Positions 1 through 31,391 of a stretch of DNA of 64,000 nucleotides are shown here, in pieces. Both the position numbers and the translations under genes were made by a program. The stretch lies in assembly GCF_003991155.1 (NCBI RefSeq), contig NZ_CP031297.1, one strand, 5' to 3'. The DNA comes from Escherichia coli (GTDB lineage: Bacteria > Pseudomonadota > Gammaproteobacteria > Enterobacterales > Enterobacteriaceae). The notes beneath the pieces are model-generated. The model had not been told where the DNA came from, did not search any database, and worked only from the letters and a program-made list of their open reading frames with translations. Within the stretch, counting starts at the first letter, position 1. Every line of letters begins with the position of its first letter.

Positions 1-1101
1 ATGGACCACCAGCTAGAAAGTATCGACGGAACAATCATGAGCAAGAGAACCAAAGACAAAGACCTGGAGAAACTCGACGTAATCAAAGACTCACCGCAAA
101 TGAGCCTGTTTGAGATCATTGAATCTCCGGCCAAGAAAGACGACTACTCCAACACCATCGAGATCTACGATGCGCTGCCGAAGTACATTTGGGACCAAAA
201 GCGTGAGCATGAAGATTTATCCAACGCTGTAGTGACACGACAATGCACCATCAGAGGCCAGCATTTCACGGTGAAGGTGAAGCCAGCCATCATCGAGAAG
301 GATGACGGAAGAACCGTGCTGATCTACGCGGGACAGCGAGAGGAAATCCTTGAGGATGCTCTACGCAAGCTCGCAGTGAACGGGAAAGGCCATATCATCG
401 AGGGCAAGGCTGGAGTCATGTTCACTCTGTACGAACTCCAGAAAGAGCTCTCGAAGATGGGTCACGGTTACAACCTGAACGAAATCAAGGAAGCAATCCA
501 GGTTTGTCGTGGCGCAACACTCGAATGTATCAGTGATGACGGCGAAGCCTTCATCAGCTCCAGCTTCTTCCCGATGGTGGGACTTACCACCAGAGGTGAG
601 TTTCGCAAGAAAGGCGGGAACGCCAGGTGCTATGTGCAGTTCAACCCGCTGGTAAACGAATCGATCATGAATCTGTCGTTTCGTCAGTACAACTACAAAA
701 TCGGAATGCAAATCCGCTCCCCTCTTGCACGGTACATCTACAAGCGAATGAGCCACTACTGGACTCAAGCATCGCCAGATTCGCCGTACACGCCATCGCT
801 TATCAGCTTCCTGACACAGAGCCCTCGTGAATTGAGCCCACGGATGCCGGAGAACGTCAGAGCTATGAAGCTCGCTCTGGAGGCCCTCATCAAACAAGAG
901 GTCATAAGCGACTACGACGCGAACCAGATCAAGGATGGCCGCAGAGTCATCGACGTGCGGTACGTCATAAGGCCTCATGAGAACTTCGTGAAGCAGGTGA
1001 TGGCGTCCAACAAGCGTAAGCAGCAGACAGAGCTACGGGCCATCAAGCAAGGCATGATCGACCACGACATCATTGATGAACCCCAGCGTAAGGGGAGGTA
1101 G
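1..1101 (+). CDS. putative plasmid replication initiator (Rep); possibly 5'-truncated at window edge
   Basis: 366-aa ORF ending ~120 bp upstream of an iteron array with DnaA boxes and an AT-rich segment; assignment is contextual, no catalytic motif recognised. Confidence 0.4.
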   Translation: MDHQLESIDGTIMSKRTKDKDLEKLDVIKDSPQMSLFEIIESPAKKDDYSNTIEIYDALPKYIWDQKREHEDLSNAVVTRQCTIRGQHFTVKVKPAIIEKDDGRTVLIYAGQREEILEDALRKLAVNGKGHIIEGKAGVMFTLYELQKELSKMGHGYNLNEIKEAIQVCRGATLECISDDGEAFISSSFFPMVGLTTRGEFRKKGGNARCYVQFNPLVNESIMNLSFRQYNYKIGMQIRSPLARYIYKRMSHYWTQASPDSPYTPSLISFLTQSPRELSPRMPENVRAMKLALEALIKQEVISDYDANQIKDGRRVIDVRYVIRPHENFVKQVMASNKRKQQTELRAIKQGMIDHDIIDEPQRKGR

Positions 1102-1140
1102 CCACCAGAAGCTCCCAATACCCCAGGGAAAAGAAAGATA

Positions 1141-1161
1141 GGCGCGTCAGCGCCTTTTTTT
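1141..1161 (+). terminator. rho-independent terminator-like hairpin after Rep ORF
   Basis: GGCGC-GTCA-GCGCC stem-loop followed by T7 run. Confidence 0.55.
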
Positions 1162-1629
1162 ATGCCAGAAGAAAGCGCACAAGGTACGCCCACAAGGAAA
1201 GACCGGAAACGGAATGCCTCCGCATATGGGGGAGCTGCACGGATAGAGCGAACGTGACCCCAGATGCTTCGTGGGCTGAGGCTCGATATATGGGAACGTT
1301 GCACGGTAGTTGCAAGCCGAGTCTCAGTATCGTGCAAGCGTAAGCCACGACGAAGGATAAGTGCCATGCTGCTCCAGTGGTTCCCGTAGAGTGGTTCCCG
1401 TAAGGTATTGATAGTTAAAGGGTGAGGATGTGGGGGACCTGCACGTTATGAGATTTGATATGTGGGTACGTTGCACGAAAGCAGGTTCTGAACCTCTCGA
1501 TATATGGGAACTCTGCACGATTGACGAAGCAGAACAAAGATTGACAGATCAGGACAAACCTAAAAAGGCAGTCAAAATGACTCCAATAGTCCATAAAGTG
1601 ATCGTGCTCACATAAAAAGAGGCCAAAAG

Positions 1630-1638
1630 TTATCCACA
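1630..1638 (+). promoter_or_regulatory. DnaA box TTATCCACA
   Basis: Exact match to consensus DnaA box inside iteron region. Confidence 0.6.
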
Positions 1639-1888
1639 TTTCCTGTGCATAAACGGGGTTTTGGTATGTGGGAGCGCTGCACGATCACATGTGGGTACGC
1701 TGCACGGAGCAAAAAACGACCAAAATTGATATATGGGAACGTTGCACGTTAAGAAGAGAATATATGGGCTGACTGCACGTATAACCTTAGACATGTGGGA
1801 ACACTGCACGAACACCAGTTCTGATATGTGGGAACGCTGCACGAAAGCTCTGTTTTGTAAGGATTTTGTGGAAAAAAAAGGGGTTCCG

Positions 1889-1907
1889 TGTGGATAACAG
1901 TGGATAA
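1889..1907 (-). promoter_or_regulatory. two adjacent DnaA-box-like sites (TGTGGATAA, GTGGATAA)
   Basis: Reverse-complement matches to TTATCCACA, 11 bp apart, within iteron region. Confidence 0.55.
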
Positions 1908-2040
1908 GATCCAAGGGTATGTGGGGGCGTTGCACGGCAACCTATGGGTTCGCTGCACGGCAACCTATGGGTTCGTTGCACGGAATAAATATGAAAATGC
2001 CAGCAATATCAATGCGTTGAATGACAACTCAGAGCGCCTA

Positions 2041-2150
2041 ACCTGTTTTTAACCGCTTTTAATCCTTTATACAAAGATCTAAAGATCTTTATATTTATCC
2101 TTTTGATCGCTGAGCAAAAAATAATCAACACTGTTTTTTAGAGAAAAGTC
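2041..2150. other. AT-rich segment flanking iterons (candidate DNA-unwinding element)
   Basis: Visibly AT-rich with AAAGATCTAAAGATCTTT palindrome containing two GATC sites. Confidence 0.45.
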
Positions 2151-2593
2151 TCGTATGCAAGGCCGAACAGGACGAGTATCACTAACAAGATAAGCATCGA
2201 CAGCACAAAGTAACCAGACTCGTACACCACAGCTTTGATCACAGAAACGACGCTGATCGATCTTCCAGAGATCCTCCCGATGATCCAGTGAAACGCAACG
2301 AACGAACCAAGCCCACAGATCAGCACCACCGCTACGGAGACAAGTGCATGTTCCCTCAGGACAGACTCACTAAGGAAACCATACTGCATCCCCATCAATA
2401 CAAGCCTGCCAATGCCAAACCCCAGACCCAATGCAACAGCTCCACGAACCAGCACAACCTTCAACGACTGGAGCCATGTCAGTTCAAGATCCATCCCCTT
2501 ACGGGAAGACCGACGCACCAGCACCATAGATATGCCCAGCCCCAAAAACACCAAAAAAACAAAATCCAACATTACCACCTCTGCACAAATCAA
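2138..2593 (-). CDS. polytopic inner-membrane protein, unknown function
   Basis: 151-aa ORF with ~4 hydrophobic segments; 4-bp overlap with upstream PAPS-reductase-like gene (operon). Confidence 0.5.
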   Translation of the reverse strand: MICAEVVMLDFVFLVFLGLGISMVLVRRSSRKGMDLELTWLQSLKVVLVRGAVALGLGFGIGRLVLMGMQYGFLSESVLREHALVSVAVVLICGLGSFVAFHWIIGRISGRSISVVSVIKAVVYESGYFVLSMLILLVILVLFGLAYETFL

Positions 2594-3705
2594 TCAGAAC
2601 CACAGGCCTCTCGGCCAAATGCGCCACCAGGGAGAACCCACTTCTGCCCCTCCGGCACAAAAATCGGGAGCGTGTAATCCTCTCTGGATACCTGCTCCAA
2701 TGCCTCAACATCACTAATCTGTATCGGCGCAACAGCAGAACCTAAATCTATTACGTCGATTTTTTTTCTTGATACCGTCACACCAAAGGTTTGTTCATAC
2801 TGAGCAATCTTCCCAGCTCGTTCAGGCCAGTAGTGACGGATAGTGGACCAGATACGCTGTGAGTTGTAGATGCAGGTCATACACGAAGACCGGCTCCAAC
2901 CAAGGCGATAAGGGACTGGGGCCAGAATGCGGTGACGCTCGATTACTTCCCATACCTCTTCCTCAGTCCAATGAAGAACGGGCCTCCAGGCATCAACTAA
3001 CCGTGCAGTCTTCCCATATCTTCTGTCACAGGCATGAGCCTCAAGCTGGTTGTACTTGGATCTGTTTGCACTTTCCTCCCGGCGCTCACCAGTGATGAAA
3101 AGGATCTTCTTCCCCTTGAAGCGCTCCTGGTTATTAAGAGCTCTGCGGCCAACATCGATCTTCAAGGCTGATGAACACCACCTTGTTTGGAGTGATGGCG
3201 ATTGCTGAGGGAAACGAAGGCGTGTACCAGGCTTAGAGCGCTTATGGTCTCTAGGCAGCACCAGAAGCCCCTCAGGCGTCTCTACACGATGGGGGTGGCT
3301 ATAGGCATTGTCTTTGAGCATTTCGCCCTCAAAGCCGCCCTCAAGCCACGAGAAGTACATTGGGACACCCAGTTCTTCCCCGAGCTGACGACAGTAATCA
3401 CGCATGAAGGCCCAATCCATCAACGAACTACCTTCCTGACCATCAACATCATGGTGCCAGAACTCCACCTTTGACTTATCAACACCCATGTCCACCAGCC
3501 GCAAGTACGCAGCAATCGAGTCCTTGCCTCCAGACAGGCAAACAATGATGTGGTCGTACAAACTCAAGTCCACATCCGGCGCTGAGAAGTACGTTGTTCT
3601 ATCGTCACAACGCTGACTGGAAGATATACCGGTAAGAACCGACTCCAGTGATGGCAACACCACCTGGTCATCGAACAAATCTCCTTGGTTTTCTCGTCTC
3701 AACAT
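2590..3705 (-). CDS. PAPS reductase-family / PP-loop ATP pyrophosphatase-like protein
   Basis: 371 aa; PP-loop motif SGGKDS near N-terminus, ~120-aa C-terminal extension. Confidence 0.75.
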   Translation of the reverse strand: MLRRENQGDLFDDQVVLPSLESVLTGISSSQRCDDRTTYFSAPDVDLSLYDHIIVCLSGGKDSIAAYLRLVDMGVDKSKVEFWHHDVDGQEGSSLMDWAFMRDYCRQLGEELGVPMYFSWLEGGFEGEMLKDNAYSHPHRVETPEGLLVLPRDHKRSKPGTRLRFPQQSPSLQTRWCSSALKIDVGRRALNNQERFKGKKILFITGERREESANRSKYNQLEAHACDRRYGKTARLVDAWRPVLHWTEEEVWEVIERHRILAPVPYRLGWSRSSCMTCIYNSQRIWSTIRHYWPERAGKIAQYEQTFGVTVSRKKIDVIDLGSAVAPIQISDVEALEQVSREDYTLPIFVPEGQKWVLPGGAFGREACGSD

Positions 3706-3742
3706 AAGTCGCTCTTTTTTCTTTACTGGGTTGTTTTTATGA

Positions 3743-3772
3743 TTTACAGTATTATAAAATGATGCTGTGAAA
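3743..3772. promoter_or_regulatory. 28-bp palindrome family copy (TTTACAGTATTATAAAATGATGCTGTGAAA)
   Basis: Imperfect inverted repeat in divergent intergenic region; family recurs ~9x. Confidence 0.5.
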
Positions 3773-3935
3773 AGTAAAGTTTTCAGAACGACCAGTCACT
3801 CAGGAGAACTTGATAAGCACCAGAAAGCAATCTAAAGGTGGTTTTTCGGTGAGGTTAGTTCAGGGGCAACCTGTCTTGCTGATTGAAAATCATCAAGAAG
3901 TGGTTTTTTGGTGTGGTTACGGTTTGAGGGGGTGA

Positions 3936-3955
3936 GTATGTGGGAACGTTGCACG
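3936..3955. repeat. isolated iteron copy (TATGTGGGAACGTTGCACGG)
   Basis: Exact iteron consensus ~2 kb from main array, 18 bp upstream of ORF start 3973. Confidence 0.6.
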
Positions 3956-3972
3956 GTTAAAGGGGGCCGCAC

Positions 3973-4581
3973 ATGAAAACGATAAAGCGGTTCATCGTAT
4001 GGGTGAATTACGGTCTTGAGGGTTGGAGCATTTTCGGATCGAGCGATGACTGGGATGAAGCGGTATCCATCCGTTCGGAAGCGATAGACGAATGCAATAT
4101 TGATGAGGAAGACATCATCTTGGCAGAAAACAAAAACGAGCTGGTGGTAAAACCTGCGGCCAAGCAAATGACGGAGTGGCACCGGGAACTGGAAGCCGTC
4201 CTTATGACCTTGGATGACTGCCAGATGGAATGTGACGGCATGACATGGGCAGTAAGCCACCTACTCAATGACGCGGGTGTACCTCATGACTGCATGTATG
4301 GTTTTGTGCGAAACGAACAGACCAAGGACATCGTGACACCGCATTTCTGGGTTGTCCTGGATGATGGGTGGTTGGTGGATCTGAGGCTACGCATGTGGCT
4401 TGGCGATCACGACAACATTCCTCACGGGGTATTCCATCCCGATAACGAGCCAGGATTTTTCTACAAGGGAGACCCCGTTCAAAACCATAAAGGGATGAGA
4501 CTGGGCAAAGCCGTCCTGGACATCATGACCGACGGAAAAATTTCACATGTGAAAGTTCCTGAACGACAAGACGGAGAGTAA
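3973..4581 (+). CDS. hypothetical protein
   Basis: 202-aa ORF with RBS; no recognisable motif. Confidence 0.5.
   Translation: MKTIKRFIVWVNYGLEGWSIFGSSDDWDEAVSIRSEAIDECNIDEEDIILAENKNELVVKPAAKQMTEWHRELEAVLMTLDDCQMECDGMTWAVSHLLNDAGVPHDCMYGFVRNEQTKDIVTPHFWVVLDDGWLVDLRLRMWLGDHDNIPHGVFHPDNEPGFFYKGDPVQNHKGMRLGKAVLDIMTDGKISHVKVPERQDGE
4540..4555. promoter_or_regulatory. parS-like palindrome TTTCACATGTGAAA (family copy, imperfect flanks)
   Basis: Core palindrome inside 3' end of ORF 3973..4581. Confidence 0.5.
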
Positions 4582-4585
4582 TAGC

Positions 4586-5107
4586 GTGGAATTTGATTAC
4601 GACAAGTCAGTATCAAACGCACATCTTGAGGCCGCAGGCTGGGGTATGGATGCCTTTAATCACTCCAACCCATTTGAGAGCCATGTCATCTATGTGCGTG
4701 ACTACCGCAACGATCACATCCGCCTGTTCACCATCAAGAAGGCTGACTTCGACACGATAAAGCTGCCGCTTCACCTTACCTCCGACATGCTGGCTTCGGT
4801 GATCGCTGAGTTCGTATCGAAGGCAGCAAAAGGGAAGTTGAATACGAAGGAGTCCGATACGCTGGCTCCTGCCTTGGTTGGCTATGCCAAATCAACAGAA
4901 ACCTACCGGAGCTGGCGGAGAGTGTCTGGAACAACAGAGCGATTGCATATGGTCATCAATATCTACGCGGGTTCTGGATTGCTGAGACCTTTCATCGCTC
5001 GGGCTCCTGAGACCGTCCTGACGACCCAAGAGCTACTGGTCTTCTCATCACAGGTTAAGAACATGGATGTATCCAATCATCCAGAGTGGTTTAGGGGCCT
5101 GAGGTAG
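4586..5107 (+). CDS. hypothetical protein (GTG start)
   Basis: 173-aa ORF. Confidence 0.45.
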   Translation: MEFDYDKSVSNAHLEAAGWGMDAFNHSNPFESHVIYVRDYRNDHIRLFTIKKADFDTIKLPLHLTSDMLASVIAEFVSKAAKGKLNTKESDTLAPALVGYAKSTETYRSWRRVSGTTERLHMVINIYAGSGLLRPFIARAPETVLTTQELLVFSSQVKNMDVSNHPEWFRGLR

Positions 5108-5109
5108 TC

Positions 5110-5631
5110 ATGAAGGCAGTTCTCTGGATATTCGTCCTTATCATTGCACCTTTCGTCATTGCGAAAGTGGACCAGTGGCGCAAACGCGGCATTGGAGACA
5201 CCTGGGCGTGGTGGAAATCAGAGAACATGCCTTATGAGCTGCGCTCGGCCACTCTGTTTTTATCCGAACAGGACATATCAACCACACAGCCGGTGCCCAT
5301 GCACGGCAGGGTTGATCAGGTGTACAAAGCCAAGAATGGGGTTCTCATTCCCTTGGACACCAAGCTGCGCCAGGTAAACCACATCTATGAGTCGGACATT
5401 ATCCAGCTCTCGGTTTACCGGGTAATTCTGTCACACAAGTACAAGGCACCCGTTGCCAAGTACGGCTATGTCCGAACCGTTGTTGAGACAGCGGACGGGG
5501 ATAGAGTCCGTTACATCAAGACAAACCTTCTCAGCGAAAAAGAAGTGGTCAAGTTGTGGCACCGCTATCAATCCATCCGTTCTGGTCAGGTAAAAACCTC
5601 CTGTTCCTGTGGCGGAAAGTTTCACATGTGA
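5110..5631 (+). CDS. hypothetical protein with N-terminal TM helix
   Basis: 173-aa ORF, RBS GAGG upstream. Confidence 0.5.
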   Translation: MKAVLWIFVLIIAPFVIAKVDQWRKRGIGDTWAWWKSENMPYELRSATLFLSEQDISTTQPVPMHGRVDQVYKAKNGVLIPLDTKLRQVNHIYESDIIQLSVYRVILSHKYKAPVAKYGYVRTVVETADGDRVRYIKTNLLSEKEVVKLWHRYQSIRSGQVKTSCSCGGKFHM

Positions 5632-5635
5632 AAGT
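5618..5635. promoter_or_regulatory. parS-like 18-bp palindrome AGTTTCACATGTGAAAGT
   Basis: Overlaps stop codon of ORF 5110..5631. Confidence 0.5.
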
Positions 5636-5727
5636 TCTGGATTGAATTAGGGTTGCCCGAATTGGGCAGCTAGGCGGGGTTGCATTTTTGAAAAGTCCTG
5701 TACGCTGGTTGGTATAGGAGGTGAATA

Positions 5728-6201
5728 GTGGCCCAGCTTAAACATAACCGCTTCGTCATGTTGGGGTCCTTGGTAGCGACGGTCGTAGCTGCTGCGAATG
5801 GCTTGAGTTTTCTCACCCTTATGGCTGGTGGAATGACCCTTATCCAGTTCATGGCTTGGAAGCAACAAGATGCTGTCCGTAGCCGGTTTAAAGCTGCGAA
5901 GGATGCGTTTGAAGCGTTGAACGTTATTGCGTTCGACAAGCACTGGGTAGGTTCAACCGCGACGGTCGCCAAAGTGTCGAACATGATCACTCCGCCCGAA
6001 CGACTGGATAAGCCCTGGGCGGTGCAAGTTCTGGCCGTAACCAAAGGTGGGACGTGGTTCGCAGTGGATCTGCAAGTGACCGGCACTGACAAGGTTCAGA
6101 TGCTTAGCCTCCACCAGCTTAGTGAAAAGGCGGCAAAGACCATGCTGGCCTTCGACCTCGAAGTGTATGAAAAATTTTTCGGAAAACCTGATGTTGCATG
6201 A
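5728..6201 (+). CDS. hypothetical membrane protein (GTG start)
   Basis: 157 aa, hydrophobic N-terminal segments, RBS AGGAGG. Confidence 0.45.
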   Translation: MAQLKHNRFVMLGSLVATVVAAANGLSFLTLMAGGMTLIQFMAWKQQDAVRSRFKAAKDAFEALNVIAFDKHWVGSTATVAKVSNMITPPERLDKPWAVQVLAVTKGGTWFAVDLQVTGTDKVQMLSLHQLSEKAAKTMLAFDLEVYEKFFGKPDVA

Positions 6202-26368: not shown

Positions 26369-26647
26369 GTGTCAGTGTTCAGCTCGCGGAGCTCGATGAT
26401 GAACAGTGACAAGAAATCGTCTGAACTAGCCAGACTGAGGCGTCAGCATCAGCTAGTTTGCTCTGTCATCGCAGCCTTGCTCATCTGTGCAGGTATATAT
26501 GGGACCGTTGCACGTTTGGGCTTCATCCTGATGGCGCCATTGTTTGTTATCGCCTTAGGTGTGTTAGTCGATGCGTTCCTGCCAAGGGTAAGTTGGTTCT
26601 TCTGTGTGCGGGACGTGAGAGACATATTTGGGTGGAGAAAACGATAG
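26369..26647 (+). CDS. small membrane protein
   Basis: 92 aa, hydrophobic; contains an isolated iteron copy. Confidence 0.3.
   Translation: MSVFSSRSSMMNSDKKSSELARLRRQHQLVCSVIAALLICAGIYGTVARLGFILMAPLFVIALGVLVDAFLPRVSWFFCVRDVRDIFGWRKR
26495..26514. repeat. isolated iteron copy (ATATATGGGACCGTTGCACG)
   Basis: Near-consensus iteron ~24.5 kb from main array. Confidence 0.5.
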
Positions 26648-29414: not shown

Positions 29415-30206
29415 GTGGGTATGGCAAAAGTAATCAGCTTCGCCAACCAGAAAGGCGGAGTGGGTAAGAGTACCCTCTGTATCCAGCAGGCCTTTTATCT
29501 GGCGTTACAGAAGAAAAAGAAAGTGCTGGTCTTGGATATGGATGGTCAGGGGAACACGTCCTCTCGACTGGCCCCCAGACGAGAGCTTGAGGATGGTGAC
29601 TACGAGCCCATCCTCACTGGAACCAAAACCGCAGAGCTGTTCGCTTACGAGCTGGACGGCATTGAGGTCATGCACTGCCCTTGCGGTGCAGACCTCATTC
29701 ATACGCCGAAGAATGACCCGGATCTGTTTGAGATGGAGGCTGTGCCTCTTGACCAAGCCATGAATCCGGCTCGCCATTTGGCTGAGCTGTTTGAGAACTA
29801 CGACTACGTGCTGATTGATTGTCCGCCTAGCCTCGGCAGAAAGCTGGTGGCAGCGTTGGTGATGTCTACCCATGTGGCATGTCCGGTAAAGCTCTCTGGC
29901 TTCGCTGTGGACGGCGTAGAAGGTCTCCTGAACACGATTATTGGTGTGCGCGAGGCATACAACCAAAATTTGGAGATCCTGGGCATCGTGATCAACGACA
30001 TGGACCGCTCTGTCAATCACGACAAAGCCCTCAAGTCGCTGGAGAACACAGTTCCGGATCTGCTGTTTGAGAACAAAATTATGCACCGGCCTCCGCTCGA
30101 TACGGCGACGACTGATGGCATCCCTGTCTGGGAGCTTCGCTATGGACATGTCGCGGCCAAAGAGGTTGAGGCGGTGTTGGAAGAACTATTAGAGAAGGTG
30201 GGCTAA
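29415..30206 (+). CDS. parA: ParA partition ATPase (Soj/MinD superfamily)
   Basis: 263 aa; deviant Walker A FANQKGGVGKSTL. Confidence 0.9.
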   Translation: MGMAKVISFANQKGGVGKSTLCIQQAFYLALQKKKKVLVLDMDGQGNTSSRLAPRRELEDGDYEPILTGTKTAELFAYELDGIEVMHCPCGADLIHTPKNDPDLFEMEAVPLDQAMNPARHLAELFENYDYVLIDCPPSLGRKLVAALVMSTHVACPVKLSGFAVDGVEGLLNTIIGVREAYNQNLEILGIVINDMDRSVNHDKALKSLENTVPDLLFENKIMHRPPLDTATTDGIPVWELRYGHVAAKEVEAVLEELLEKVG

Positions 30207-30209
30207 GCG

Positions 30210-31391
30210 ATGGCATTGAACAATTTAAAAGGCCTGTCCGAACTTGCTAAAGCCGCCAAAGGCAAGAAAGGCAAAGAGGTTCTTACCGTACCTGTTGACG
30301 ACGTTGTATCCAAGGTCCAGGTTCGTAAGCGCTTCCGTAACATTGAAGAGCTGGCGGCAACCTTGCTGACCGAAGGGCAGCAATCTCCGATCATCGTGTT
30401 CCCGAAGAATGAAGAAGGCAAGTTCGTCATCCAAAAAGGGGAGCGGCGTTGGAGAGCGTGTAAACACGCTGGTATCGAGACCATTGACCTGGTGGTGAAT
30501 GATAAGGTCCAGAACAATTTGGACGAGACTGCTGGTGAGCTGATCGAAAACATCCAGCGGGATGACTTGACTCCGGTAGAGATTGCCGAGGCGTTAAACC
30601 TGTTTATTGAAGAAGGTTGGAAGCAAAAGGATATTGCTGATCGGCTCGGTAAGAATATCACTTTCGTATCTACGCATCTGTCGTTGCTCAAGCTACCTGA
30701 CTGTGTGCGTGAGTTATACGATAATGAAGTATGTTCTGATACAGAGACCTTGAATAACCTTCGTCTCTTGTTCGATCTGAATGAAGAAAGATGTCGCGCC
30801 GTCTGCGCGGTGGCTATGTCTGACGGGATTACTCGTAAACAAAGCCGTGAGCTGCTGAATGATGCCAAACGTATCAAAGACGAAATGGAAAAAGGCCCAC
30901 TGACTGGCTCCCACCAGAATGATGAGCTTGGCGCTGGCAACACCGACGAGCAATCCCTCAACTCGGGTGGGGATGGTACGTCGGAACAAACCGGGAATGA
31001 CGACCTGAACCTTGCCCAGGAGGAACTGGAAGGGGGTAAAAATTCCAATGGTCAGGACGATGATGACGAAGACCCTTTGCGTGATGAAGAGGGTGAGCAC
31101 AAAGATCCTGTCAAGCAGCCAGATAACAGCGGCAAGGACAAAGATGAAGAAGGCGGTGATGCTCTTCCTCCTCTGCCGAAGGACAAGGAATGGAAGAACG
31201 TCCGGGCTGACAGTTTGATTTTTGCTGTCAACGTTAACCTGGATGGCGAGACCAAACGTGGAGTCATCATGACCGACCGTGTTGCTCTGGTTCCGTCTAC
31301 TGTCTGGGTTAAAACGCTCGATGGCGAAGGCAAGGAAAAGCATGTTCATGTGCCTGTGTCAGACATTGAACTCCTGAGTGTCGAAGGCTAA
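30210..31391 (+). CDS. parB: ParB partition protein with acidic C-terminal extension
   Basis: 393 aa; ParB motif KGERRWRA, HTH; immediately downstream of parA. Confidence 0.85.
   Translation: MALNNLKGLSELAKAAKGKKGKEVLTVPVDDVVSKVQVRKRFRNIEELAATLLTEGQQSPIIVFPKNEEGKFVIQKGERRWRACKHAGIETIDLVVNDKVQNNLDETAGELIENIQRDDLTPVEIAEALNLFIEEGWKQKDIADRLGKNITFVSTHLSLLKLPDCVRELYDNEVCSDTETLNNLRLLFDLNEERCRAVCAVAMSDGITRKQSRELLNDAKRIKDEMEKGPLTGSHQNDELGAGNTDEQSLNSGGDGTSEQTGNDDLNLAQEELEGGKNSNGQDDDDEDPLRDEEGEHKDPVKQPDNSGKDKDEEGGDALPPLPKDKEWKNVRADSLIFAVNVNLDGETKRGVIMTDRVALVPSTVWVKTLDGEGKEKHVHVPVSDIELLSVEG

Follow-up and report, generated by a model that had tools for sequence, protein, structure and literature searches.

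Here, we identify positions 1223-2137 of the window, i.e., of the complete 64,000-nucleotide stretch of DNA analysed, as very probably the oriV of an IncC (IncA/C2) conjugative plasmid, an iteron-controlled theta origin on which the product of repA (1-1101) acts in cis. The first-pass annotation had proposed an iteron-type oriV in this region. All the sequence hallmarks of such an origin are found here, and they are under purifying selection across IncC, IncA, and distant replicons of the RepA/C family. Moreover, the region lies 3' of the open reading frame at 1-1101 and its terminator at 1140-1165, in agreement with the proposed placement downstream of a rep gene. Because the oriV of the IncC family has already been published, the earlier reading is correct and the feature is an ordinary one; the IncC origin is in the literature, and the window brings no new element. 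What is gained is a precise placement on the window of each iteron (orphan copies included), DnaA box, IHF site, and AT-rich repeat, together with comparative evidence on which positions of the origin face selection. IncC plasmids rank among the main carriers of resistance genes such as blaNDM and blaCMY, and their oriV can, therefore, be targeted in plasmid typing, incompatibility work, and curing.

Replicon identity and the RepA initiator

Several lines of evidence support that the region is the replication origin of an IncC plasmid. They comprise motifs, their statistics, conservation, the predicted fold of RepA, and identity with IncC plasmids; the evidence for autonomous replication comes from the literature. 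The window matches positions 1-64000 of the Aeromonas hydrophila plasmid pR148 (NC_019380.1) with 0 mismatches over 64 kb. pR148, the record of which is numbered from the repA start codon, is the best match with the same start base, and it is typed by MOB-suite as replicon IncC with relaxase MOBH. Thus, the feature belongs to the backbone of a resistance plasmid of the IncC (IncA/C2) type. A total of 223 plasmid records match positions 1-2600 at 100% identity, and 1031 records cover ≥80% of this segment; the matching plasmids are mostly from Klebsiella, Salmonella, and Escherichia and mostly conjugative. Both repA and oriV are identical to those of IncC reference plasmids.

RepA is 100% identical to WP_001348532.1 and is annotated in pR148 as a "RepB family plasmid replication initiator protein." The protein has no Pfam match at E-values up to 10, including Rep_3 (PF01051), no NCBIfam match, and no match among PDB sequences, either by phmmer or using a 52-sequence profile. 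Its family assignment, therefore, rests on its predicted fold. A database search returned 222 homologues, 52 of which were aligned as the basis for an AlphaFold2 model with a mean pLDDT of 89.6 and a pTM of 0.87. In a Foldseek search of this model against the PDB, all 45 hits at E<1e-3 are iteron-binding initiators. The best match is to domains 2-3 of RctB (E 5e-8), and further matches include many RepE54-iteron complexes, the Rep-DUE ssDNA complexes 8ac8 and 8aan, and π of R6K. RepA is, thus, predicted to fold as a tandem winged-helix (WH1-WH2) iteron initiator, and the concern that the open reading frame at 1-1101 might instead be homologous to a nonreplication protein is not borne out. In many iteron plasmids, Rep represses its own synthesis via an iteron-like inverted repeat in the rep promoter, an arrangement that is common and not obligatory. 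In the 1138 bp upstream of repA (taken from pNDM-1_Dok01), which hold mobI and a 95-codon open reading frame overlapping the repA start, no iteron-like site with ≤2 mismatches was found above chance.

The cumulative GC skew of pR148 is lowest at 3726 and highest at 149183, close to a Tus-like gene. This profile agrees with an origin near 2 kb from which replication runs mostly to the right and is weakly informative. We give it little weight because a minimum close to coordinate 1 follows in part from the net positive skew, because the genes are almost all encoded on the + strand, and because the 140-166 kb region is noisy. An E. coli-type Ter consensus was not found in pR148.

The IncA/C origin has been known since the 1990s through the RA1 replicon, which Llanes et al. 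reportedly cloned in 1994. IncA/C plasmids have been described as "iteron-containing theta" replicons (PMC3383451), and the oriV of pVCR94 was located by its identity with that of pRA1 (PMC4542580). [quoted passage not shown]

Elements of the origin

The region combines the components of an iteron-type theta origin, i.e., iterons, a linked rep gene with a predicted tandem winged-helix product, DnaA boxes, and an AT-rich element (Table 1). First, the pattern ATRTGGGNNNNNTGCACG has 12 exact matches in 1224-1936 as well as two CTATGGG variants at 1942 and 1965, so that the 19-mer occurs 14 times, always on the + strand. The expectation of about 14 directly repeated iterons is, thus, matched in full, and chance accounts for essentially none of them: across the 64 kb, the pattern has 15 exact matches compared to 0.00 expected from shuffled sequences, and 19 matches with ≤2 mismatches compared to 2.76 expected. 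The published IncC iteron consensus is 19 bp, yaTRTGGGNNcgcTGCACG, in 11-14 copies (PMC7433901). Start-to-start spacings of the iterons are 64, 140, 32, 42, 164, 23, 42, 31, 31, 33, 93, 23, and 23 bp. A regular spacing of 22-25 bp, as originally claimed, therefore applies to three intervals of 23 bp (1666/1689, 1919/1942, and 1942/1965), and not to the remaining intervals, which measure 31-164 bp. Tandem Repeats Finder independently picks up the terminal array with 23-bp periodicity. Many of the spacings other than 23 bp approach whole numbers of helical turns.

Each iteron consists of two conserved 6-bp half-sites, TRTGGG and TGCACG, with five variable bp between them. With this 5-bp separation, the half-sites, which are 11 bp apart from center to center, lie approximately one helical turn from each other. 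By comparison with the RepE54 and π co-crystals, this 6 + 5 + 6 bp geometry would fit a single WH1-WH2 RepA monomer on two successive major grooves.

Second, the only exact TTATCCACA boxes in the 64-kb window are the two at 1630-1638 and 1889-1897. The former, on the + strand, is the exact DnaA box already noted at 1630, and the latter, on the - strand, forms with a one-mismatch box at 1899-1907 (-) the inverted pair that had been described as box-like. When one mismatch is allowed, five of the 14 boxes in the 64 kb are packed into 278 bp (Poisson P ~7e-9). The IHF consensus WATCAANNNNTTR is matched exactly three times in the 64 kb, twice within the origin region.

Third, the stretch at 2046-2147 has an AT content of 74%, making it the most AT-rich 100-bp stretch of the window, which has a mean of 48.6% AT. 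An AT-rich stretch with GATC sites at 2041-2150 had been pointed out before, and it indeed coincides with the AT maximum and holds three GATC sites, two of which (2076 and 2084) lie within two copies of AAAGATCT identified by Tandem Repeats Finder (2073-2088). Directly after the IHF-consensus site at 2007-2019, three 11-bp-spaced repeats begin; three of the eight matches to this 11-mer motif class in the 64 kb cluster at 2038-2071, and a related TTATCCTTTT is present at 2095. We suggest that these 11-bp repeats are candidate repeats of a DNA unwinding element.

The iteron-free module was also searched for regulatory elements. A sigma-70 promoter scan of this module gave nothing convincing, with AT-rich matches at chance frequency only. 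A scan of positions 1-6000 against Rfam at E≤1 returned no match; thus, nothing points to a known type of antisense-RNA control.

Table 1. Coordinates of repA, the origin elements, and the orphan iterons in the window.
Feature	Position	Strand	Basis
repA, replication initiator, 366 aa	1..1101	+	ORF; predicted fold; pR148 annotation
repA intrinsic terminator, GC stem then T run	1140..1165	+	hairpin with T run
Iteron 1	1223..1241	+	motif match and conservation
Iteron 2	1287..1305	+	motif match and conservation
14-bp tandem repeat AGTGGTTCCCGTAG x1.9	1376..1402	+	Tandem Repeats Finder; kept in IncA, absent from Edwardsiella plasmid
IHF-consensus site WATCAANNNNTTR	1401..1413	-	exact consensus match; also matched in Marinobacterium
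Iteron 3	1427..1445	+	motif match and conservation
Iteron 4	1459..1477	+	motif match and conservation
Iteron 5	1501..1519	+	motif match and conservation
20-bp imperfect tandem repeat GATTGAC... x2, in iteron-free module	1519..1558	+	Tandem Repeats Finder
DnaA box, exact TTATCCACA	1630..1638	+	motif match; 100% conserved in four aligned replicons
DnaA-box-like TTATGCACA, 1 mismatch	1644..1652	-	motif match
Iteron 6	1665..1683	+	motif match and conservation
Iteron 7	1688..1706	+	motif match and conservation
Iteron 8	1730..1748	+	motif match and conservation
Iteron 9	1761..1779	+	motif match and conservation
Iteron 10	1792..1810	+	motif match and conservation
Iteron 11	1825..1843	+	motif match and conservation
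DnaA-box-like TTTTCCACA, 1 mismatch	1867..1875	-	motif match
DnaA box, exact TTATCCACA	1889..1897	-	motif match; 100% conserved in four aligned replicons
DnaA-box-like TTATCCACT, 1 mismatch	1899..1907	-	motif match
Iteron 12, first of terminal triple at 23-bp spacing	1918..1936	+	motif match and tandem repeat
Iteron 13, CTATGGG variant	1941..1959	+	motif match
Iteron 14, CTATGGG variant	1964..1982	+	motif match
IHF-consensus site, linker between last iteron and AT-rich region	2007..2019	+	exact consensus match
Three 11-bp-spaced repeats CTAACCTGTTT / TTAACCGCTTT / TAATCCTTTAT	2038..2071	+	motif class and conservation
AT-rich region, presumed DNA unwinding element	2041..2137	.	AT maximum; GATC at 2076, 2084, 2105
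Orphan iteron inside PAPS-reductase-like gene	3002..3019	-	exact match; kept in other IncC allele, IncA, Edwardsiella
Orphan consensus iteron, 18 bp before ATG at 3973	3938..3955	+	exact match; kept in IncA, Edwardsiella
Orphan iteron, intergenic gap 26410-26646	26497..26514	+	exact match

Conservation of the origin and alternative readings

We aligned four sequences, i.e., the IncC allele of the window, a second IncC allele, an IncA plasmid, and Edwardsiella ictaluri pEI-2234-3. The second IncC allele, found in ~760 plasmids, is 94.2% identical over the region and has unchanged iteron spacing, and the IncA plasmid is 81.5% identical. All 14 iterons are common to IncC and IncA, and their spacing is equal except for the first interval, which is 62 bp in IncA and 64 bp in IncC. 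Between IncC and IncA, 167 of the 168 fixed iteron positions (12 per iteron) are identical (99.4%), compared to 61% of the middle five iteron bases and 79% of the inter-iteron spacers (Fisher P=6e-12 and 0.005). The middle five bases, thus, diverge faster.

The four aligned sequences do not differ at all in the two exact DnaA boxes or in the block at 2062-2101 (ATCCTTTATACAAAGATCTAAAGATCTTTATATTTATCCT). In the two IHF sites (1401-1413 and 2007-2019), variation is confined to the N positions, and the consensus bases are retained; at 2007-2019, TATCAA....TTG is invariant inside a linker of only 53% conservation. The iteron-free module at 1520-1665 is strongly conserved. Within it, the 20-bp repeat at 1519-1558 is almost invariant in the four-way alignment, and TTGAC repeats are present at the equivalent place in a Marinobacterium replicon.

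More distant relatives extend these observations. A Xenorhabdus replicon (RepA 84% identical) has eight iterons, ATATGTAGGTATGCTGCACGG, and the Marinobacterium replicon (RepA 59% identical) has at least 12, TRTAGGTTCGCTGCATCGG. In both, the array is downstream of rep and ends in a 23-bp triple followed by CTAACC-type 11-mers. The terminal iteron triple and the 11-bp repeats of 2038-2071 are each kept in IncA, Edwardsiella, Xenorhabdus, and Marinobacterium. The Marinobacterium replicon also keeps the iteron-free gap (164/165 bp) and an exact DnaA box adjoining the terminal triple. In one metagenomic relative, the array is upstream of rep and in the opposite orientation. The comparisons with IncA and with more distant replicons show strong selection on the origin.

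Not all parts of the array need have the same function. In a division of labor, the origin proper would be confined to ~1630-2137, a stretch that has iterons 6-14 as well as DnaA boxes, an IHF site, and the AT-rich element, and iterons 1-5 (1223-1519) would be a dispensable copy-control/incompatibility locus comparable to P1 incA or F incC. P1 and F, as iteron plasmids, carry auxiliary control iterons. A 146-bp iteron-free module divides iterons 1-5 from the remainder, the number of left-hand iterons varies (seven in Edwardsiella and five here), the Xenorhabdus relative manages with eight iterons in total, and conservation is highest in the terminal triple, at the DnaA boxes, and in the AT-rich block. 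However, iterons 1-5 equal the other iterons in how strictly their position and spacing are maintained between IncC and IncA. On balance, we regard this division as a serious contender that falls somewhat short of an even chance. It refines, and does not deny, the explanation of the region as an oriV.

Direct-repeat arrays can also serve in partitioning. Some plasmid centromeres are built in this way, and IncC plasmids carry two partition systems, so that the array might be a centromere bound by a ParB/ParR-type protein rather than an origin. This reading is highly improbable, and we reject it: the par genes are distant, with parA and a KorB-domain parB at 29421-31391 and a ParM/StbA gene at 163.6 kb, so that the nearest par genes, at 25-31 kb and 163.6 kb of the plasmid, do not adjoin the array, and the published IncC parS overlaps the PparA promoter (PMC10954446). 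The array instead adjoins rep, DnaA boxes, IHF sites, and an AT-rich element, and the literature calls it oriV.

The notion that the repeats reflect coding repeats of small proteins, prompted by several open reading frames of 54-101 aa that overlap the region and by two to three "hypothetical proteins" annotated here in some database records, has next to no probability and is rejected, since none of the nine tested open reading frames (54-101 aa) is open and in frame in all four aligned sequences, conservation tracks the iteron register and not codon phase, and RefSeq pR148 has no CDS between 1102 and 2137.

Proposed mechanism, orphan iterons, and related systems

From the F, P1, R6K, RK2, and pSC101 systems, we infer by analogy how the IncC oriV might be bound by RepA, DnaA, and IHF, where it might melt, and how it might be controlled. 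We suggest that RepA monomers, each with two winged-helix domains in tandem, would bind the 14 directly repeated iterons and that host DnaA would occupy the boxes at 1630 and 1889-1907. IHF may bend the DNA at 2007-2019 and also at 1401-1413. RepA, DnaA, and IHF would then jointly open the adjacent AT-rich element at 2038-2137, in which the 11-bp repeats and the GATC sites for Dam are located; the helicase and replisome of the host would be loaded at the opened DNA. The GATC sites may permit Dam/SeqA-dependent timing of initiation, and the large number of iterons probably limits copy number by titration of RepA and by origin pairing ("handcuffing").

Outside oriV, the 64-kb window contains three exact iteron copies, two of which are conserved in relatives (Table 1). 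The ATG at 3973, which one of the conserved copies precedes, belongs to the first gene of a long operon on the + strand. The copy at 26497-26514 was not found in 34 kb of IncA sequence extending from mobI and repA past parAB to traD. As a tentative idea, which we consider rather unlikely, all three orphan iterons would be genuine RepA-binding sites; they might couple the initiator to the expression of backbone genes or act as distal partners in handcuffing or titration that set the copy number. If so, they would represent a layer of IncA/C replication control that goes unmentioned in the IncC papers examined here. The additional DnaA boxes, the IHF-consensus sites, and the 11-bp repeats, like the orphan iterons themselves, go beyond those papers and may already be described in Llanes 1994/1996 or Harmer & Hall 2015.

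The closest known systems are the IncC/IncA (RepA/C) oriVs of pR148, R16a, pVCR94, and RA1, which are the same origin as that described here and agree with it in iteron consensus and copy range. In contrast to the "single DnaA box" of the IncC papers examined here, we find two exact boxes and three near-boxes. Mini-F oriS/RepE, R6K γ ori/π, P1 oriR/RepA, RK2 oriV/TrfA, and pSC101 share with the IncC oriV the direct repeats for a tandem winged-helix Rep, the DnaA boxes, and the IHF site. The fold predicted for RepA resembles those of mini-F RepE54 and R6K π, and an AT-rich DUE with GATC sites is also found in P1 oriR and in oriC. Unlike in classical iteron origins, the 14 iterons form four dispersed groups, all of them 3' of rep, with spacings of mostly 31-164 bp rather than a uniform 22 bp; and unlike in many classical iteron plasmids, there is no iteron-like operator within 1.1 kb upstream of rep.

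Chromosome 2 of Vibrio cholerae provides a further parallel. Its initiator RctB contributes, with domains 2-3, the best structural match to the predicted RepA model, and in its origin, ori2, initiator sites are numerous and are accompanied by a DnaA box, an IHF site, and Dam sites, as in the IncC oriV. RepA is about half the size of RctB and is without its extra domains. Also unlike in ori2, the IncC iterons contain no GATC, and 39-mer-type regulatory sites were not seen.

RepA homologues are also encoded by Buchnera pLeu/pTrp (63% identity) and by a Pseudomonas megaplasmid (32% identity). The array is all but gone from Buchnera, where pTrp keeps a DnaA box and one iteron-like site. In the Pseudomonas megaplasmid, at least 10 direct repeats are dispersed 3' of rep, with an iteron sequence (TACTSAGGTTTNNTCCACGATTC) that differs from that of IncC. 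Because the layout recurs in the Xenorhabdus, Marinobacterium, and Pseudomonas relatives, it is an old and conserved feature of the RepA/C family.

Iteron copies outside the origin

Beyond oriV, three exact copies of the iteron are present, compared with zero expected by chance, and no others occur in the whole 165.9-kb plasmid. The copy at 3938, a consensus-sequence iteron located 18 bp upstream of the ATG at 3973, is kept in the IncA plasmid and in the Edwardsiella plasmid. The copy at 3002 is also conserved, including in the Edwardsiella plasmid, which has no annotated gene at that spot. We suggest that these orphan iterons may serve as operators for RepA or as handcuffing partners. Directly upstream of the iteron at 3938, the divergent intergenic region contains an imperfect 35-bp direct repeat (3823-3919; GAAAGCAATCTAAAGGTGGTTTTTCGGTGAGGTTA and GAAAATCATCAAGAAGTGGTTTTTTGGTGTGGTTA), the two copies of which are 62 bp apart. 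This repeat may be a regulator-binding site.

Repeated and palindromic elements within oriV and elsewhere in the window
Feature	Position	Strand	Description
Orphan iteron	3002-3019	-	exact copy
Orphan iteron	3938-3955	+	exact copy, consensus sequence
Orphan iteron	26497-26514	+	exact copy
20-bp tandem repeat	1519-1558		GATTGAC..., two copies; within iteron-free module
Palindrome	1571-1581		GTCAAAATGAC; within iteron-free module

Sequence divergence within oriV

Comparison of window 1102-2150 with L002, the second IncC allele (NZ_CP024550.1), shows that IncC plasmids carry two alleles of oriV. The window allele is found at 100% identity in ∼223 records, and the second allele, which is 94.2% identical to the window across the non-coding origin, in ∼760 records. 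In the one copy of the second allele compared, none of the differences from the window falls in a DnaA box or at a fixed position of an iteron. Within the iterons (1223-1982), the five middle bases change more quickly than the spacers between iterons: between IncC and IncA, identity is 61% in the middle bases versus 79% in the spacers (P=0.005); the corresponding figures for the two IncC alleles are 84% and 93%. This faster divergence could reflect relaxed constraint, exchange between copies of the repeat, or a connection with IncA/IncC compatibility.

Genes near the origin and near the GC-skew maximum

In pNDM-1_Dok01, the sequence directly preceding window position 1 (323-1154) contains mobI followed by a 95-codon ORF, the stop of which overlaps the start of repA by 16 nt. 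The order mobI-orf-repA recurs in IncA and in a Marinobacterium replicon. Because residues 1-15 of RepA have low confidence in the structural model, and because most homologues are shorter and their alignments leave part of RepA uncovered, the true start of RepA may be Met13 (window position 37). The gene adjoining the origin (2590-3705, minus strand) codes for a protein with a PAPS-reductase domain, which weakly resembles DndC-type sulfurtransferases (E 2e-9, well short of the curated cut-off).

Beyond the window, pR148 has a gene (149651-150526) whose Tus-like product bears the annotation "DNA replication terminus site-binding protein". The cumulative GC skew reaches its maximum at 149183, close to this gene, and the E. 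coli-type Ter consensus was not found anywhere in the whole plasmid.

A conserved iteron-free module

The iteron groups of oriV are separated by a highly conserved module without iterons (1519-1665), in which no convincing promoter-like match was found. The Marinobacterium relative has the same 164/165-bp gap as the window and, at the position matching the GATTGAC repeat, carries three copies of TTGAC.
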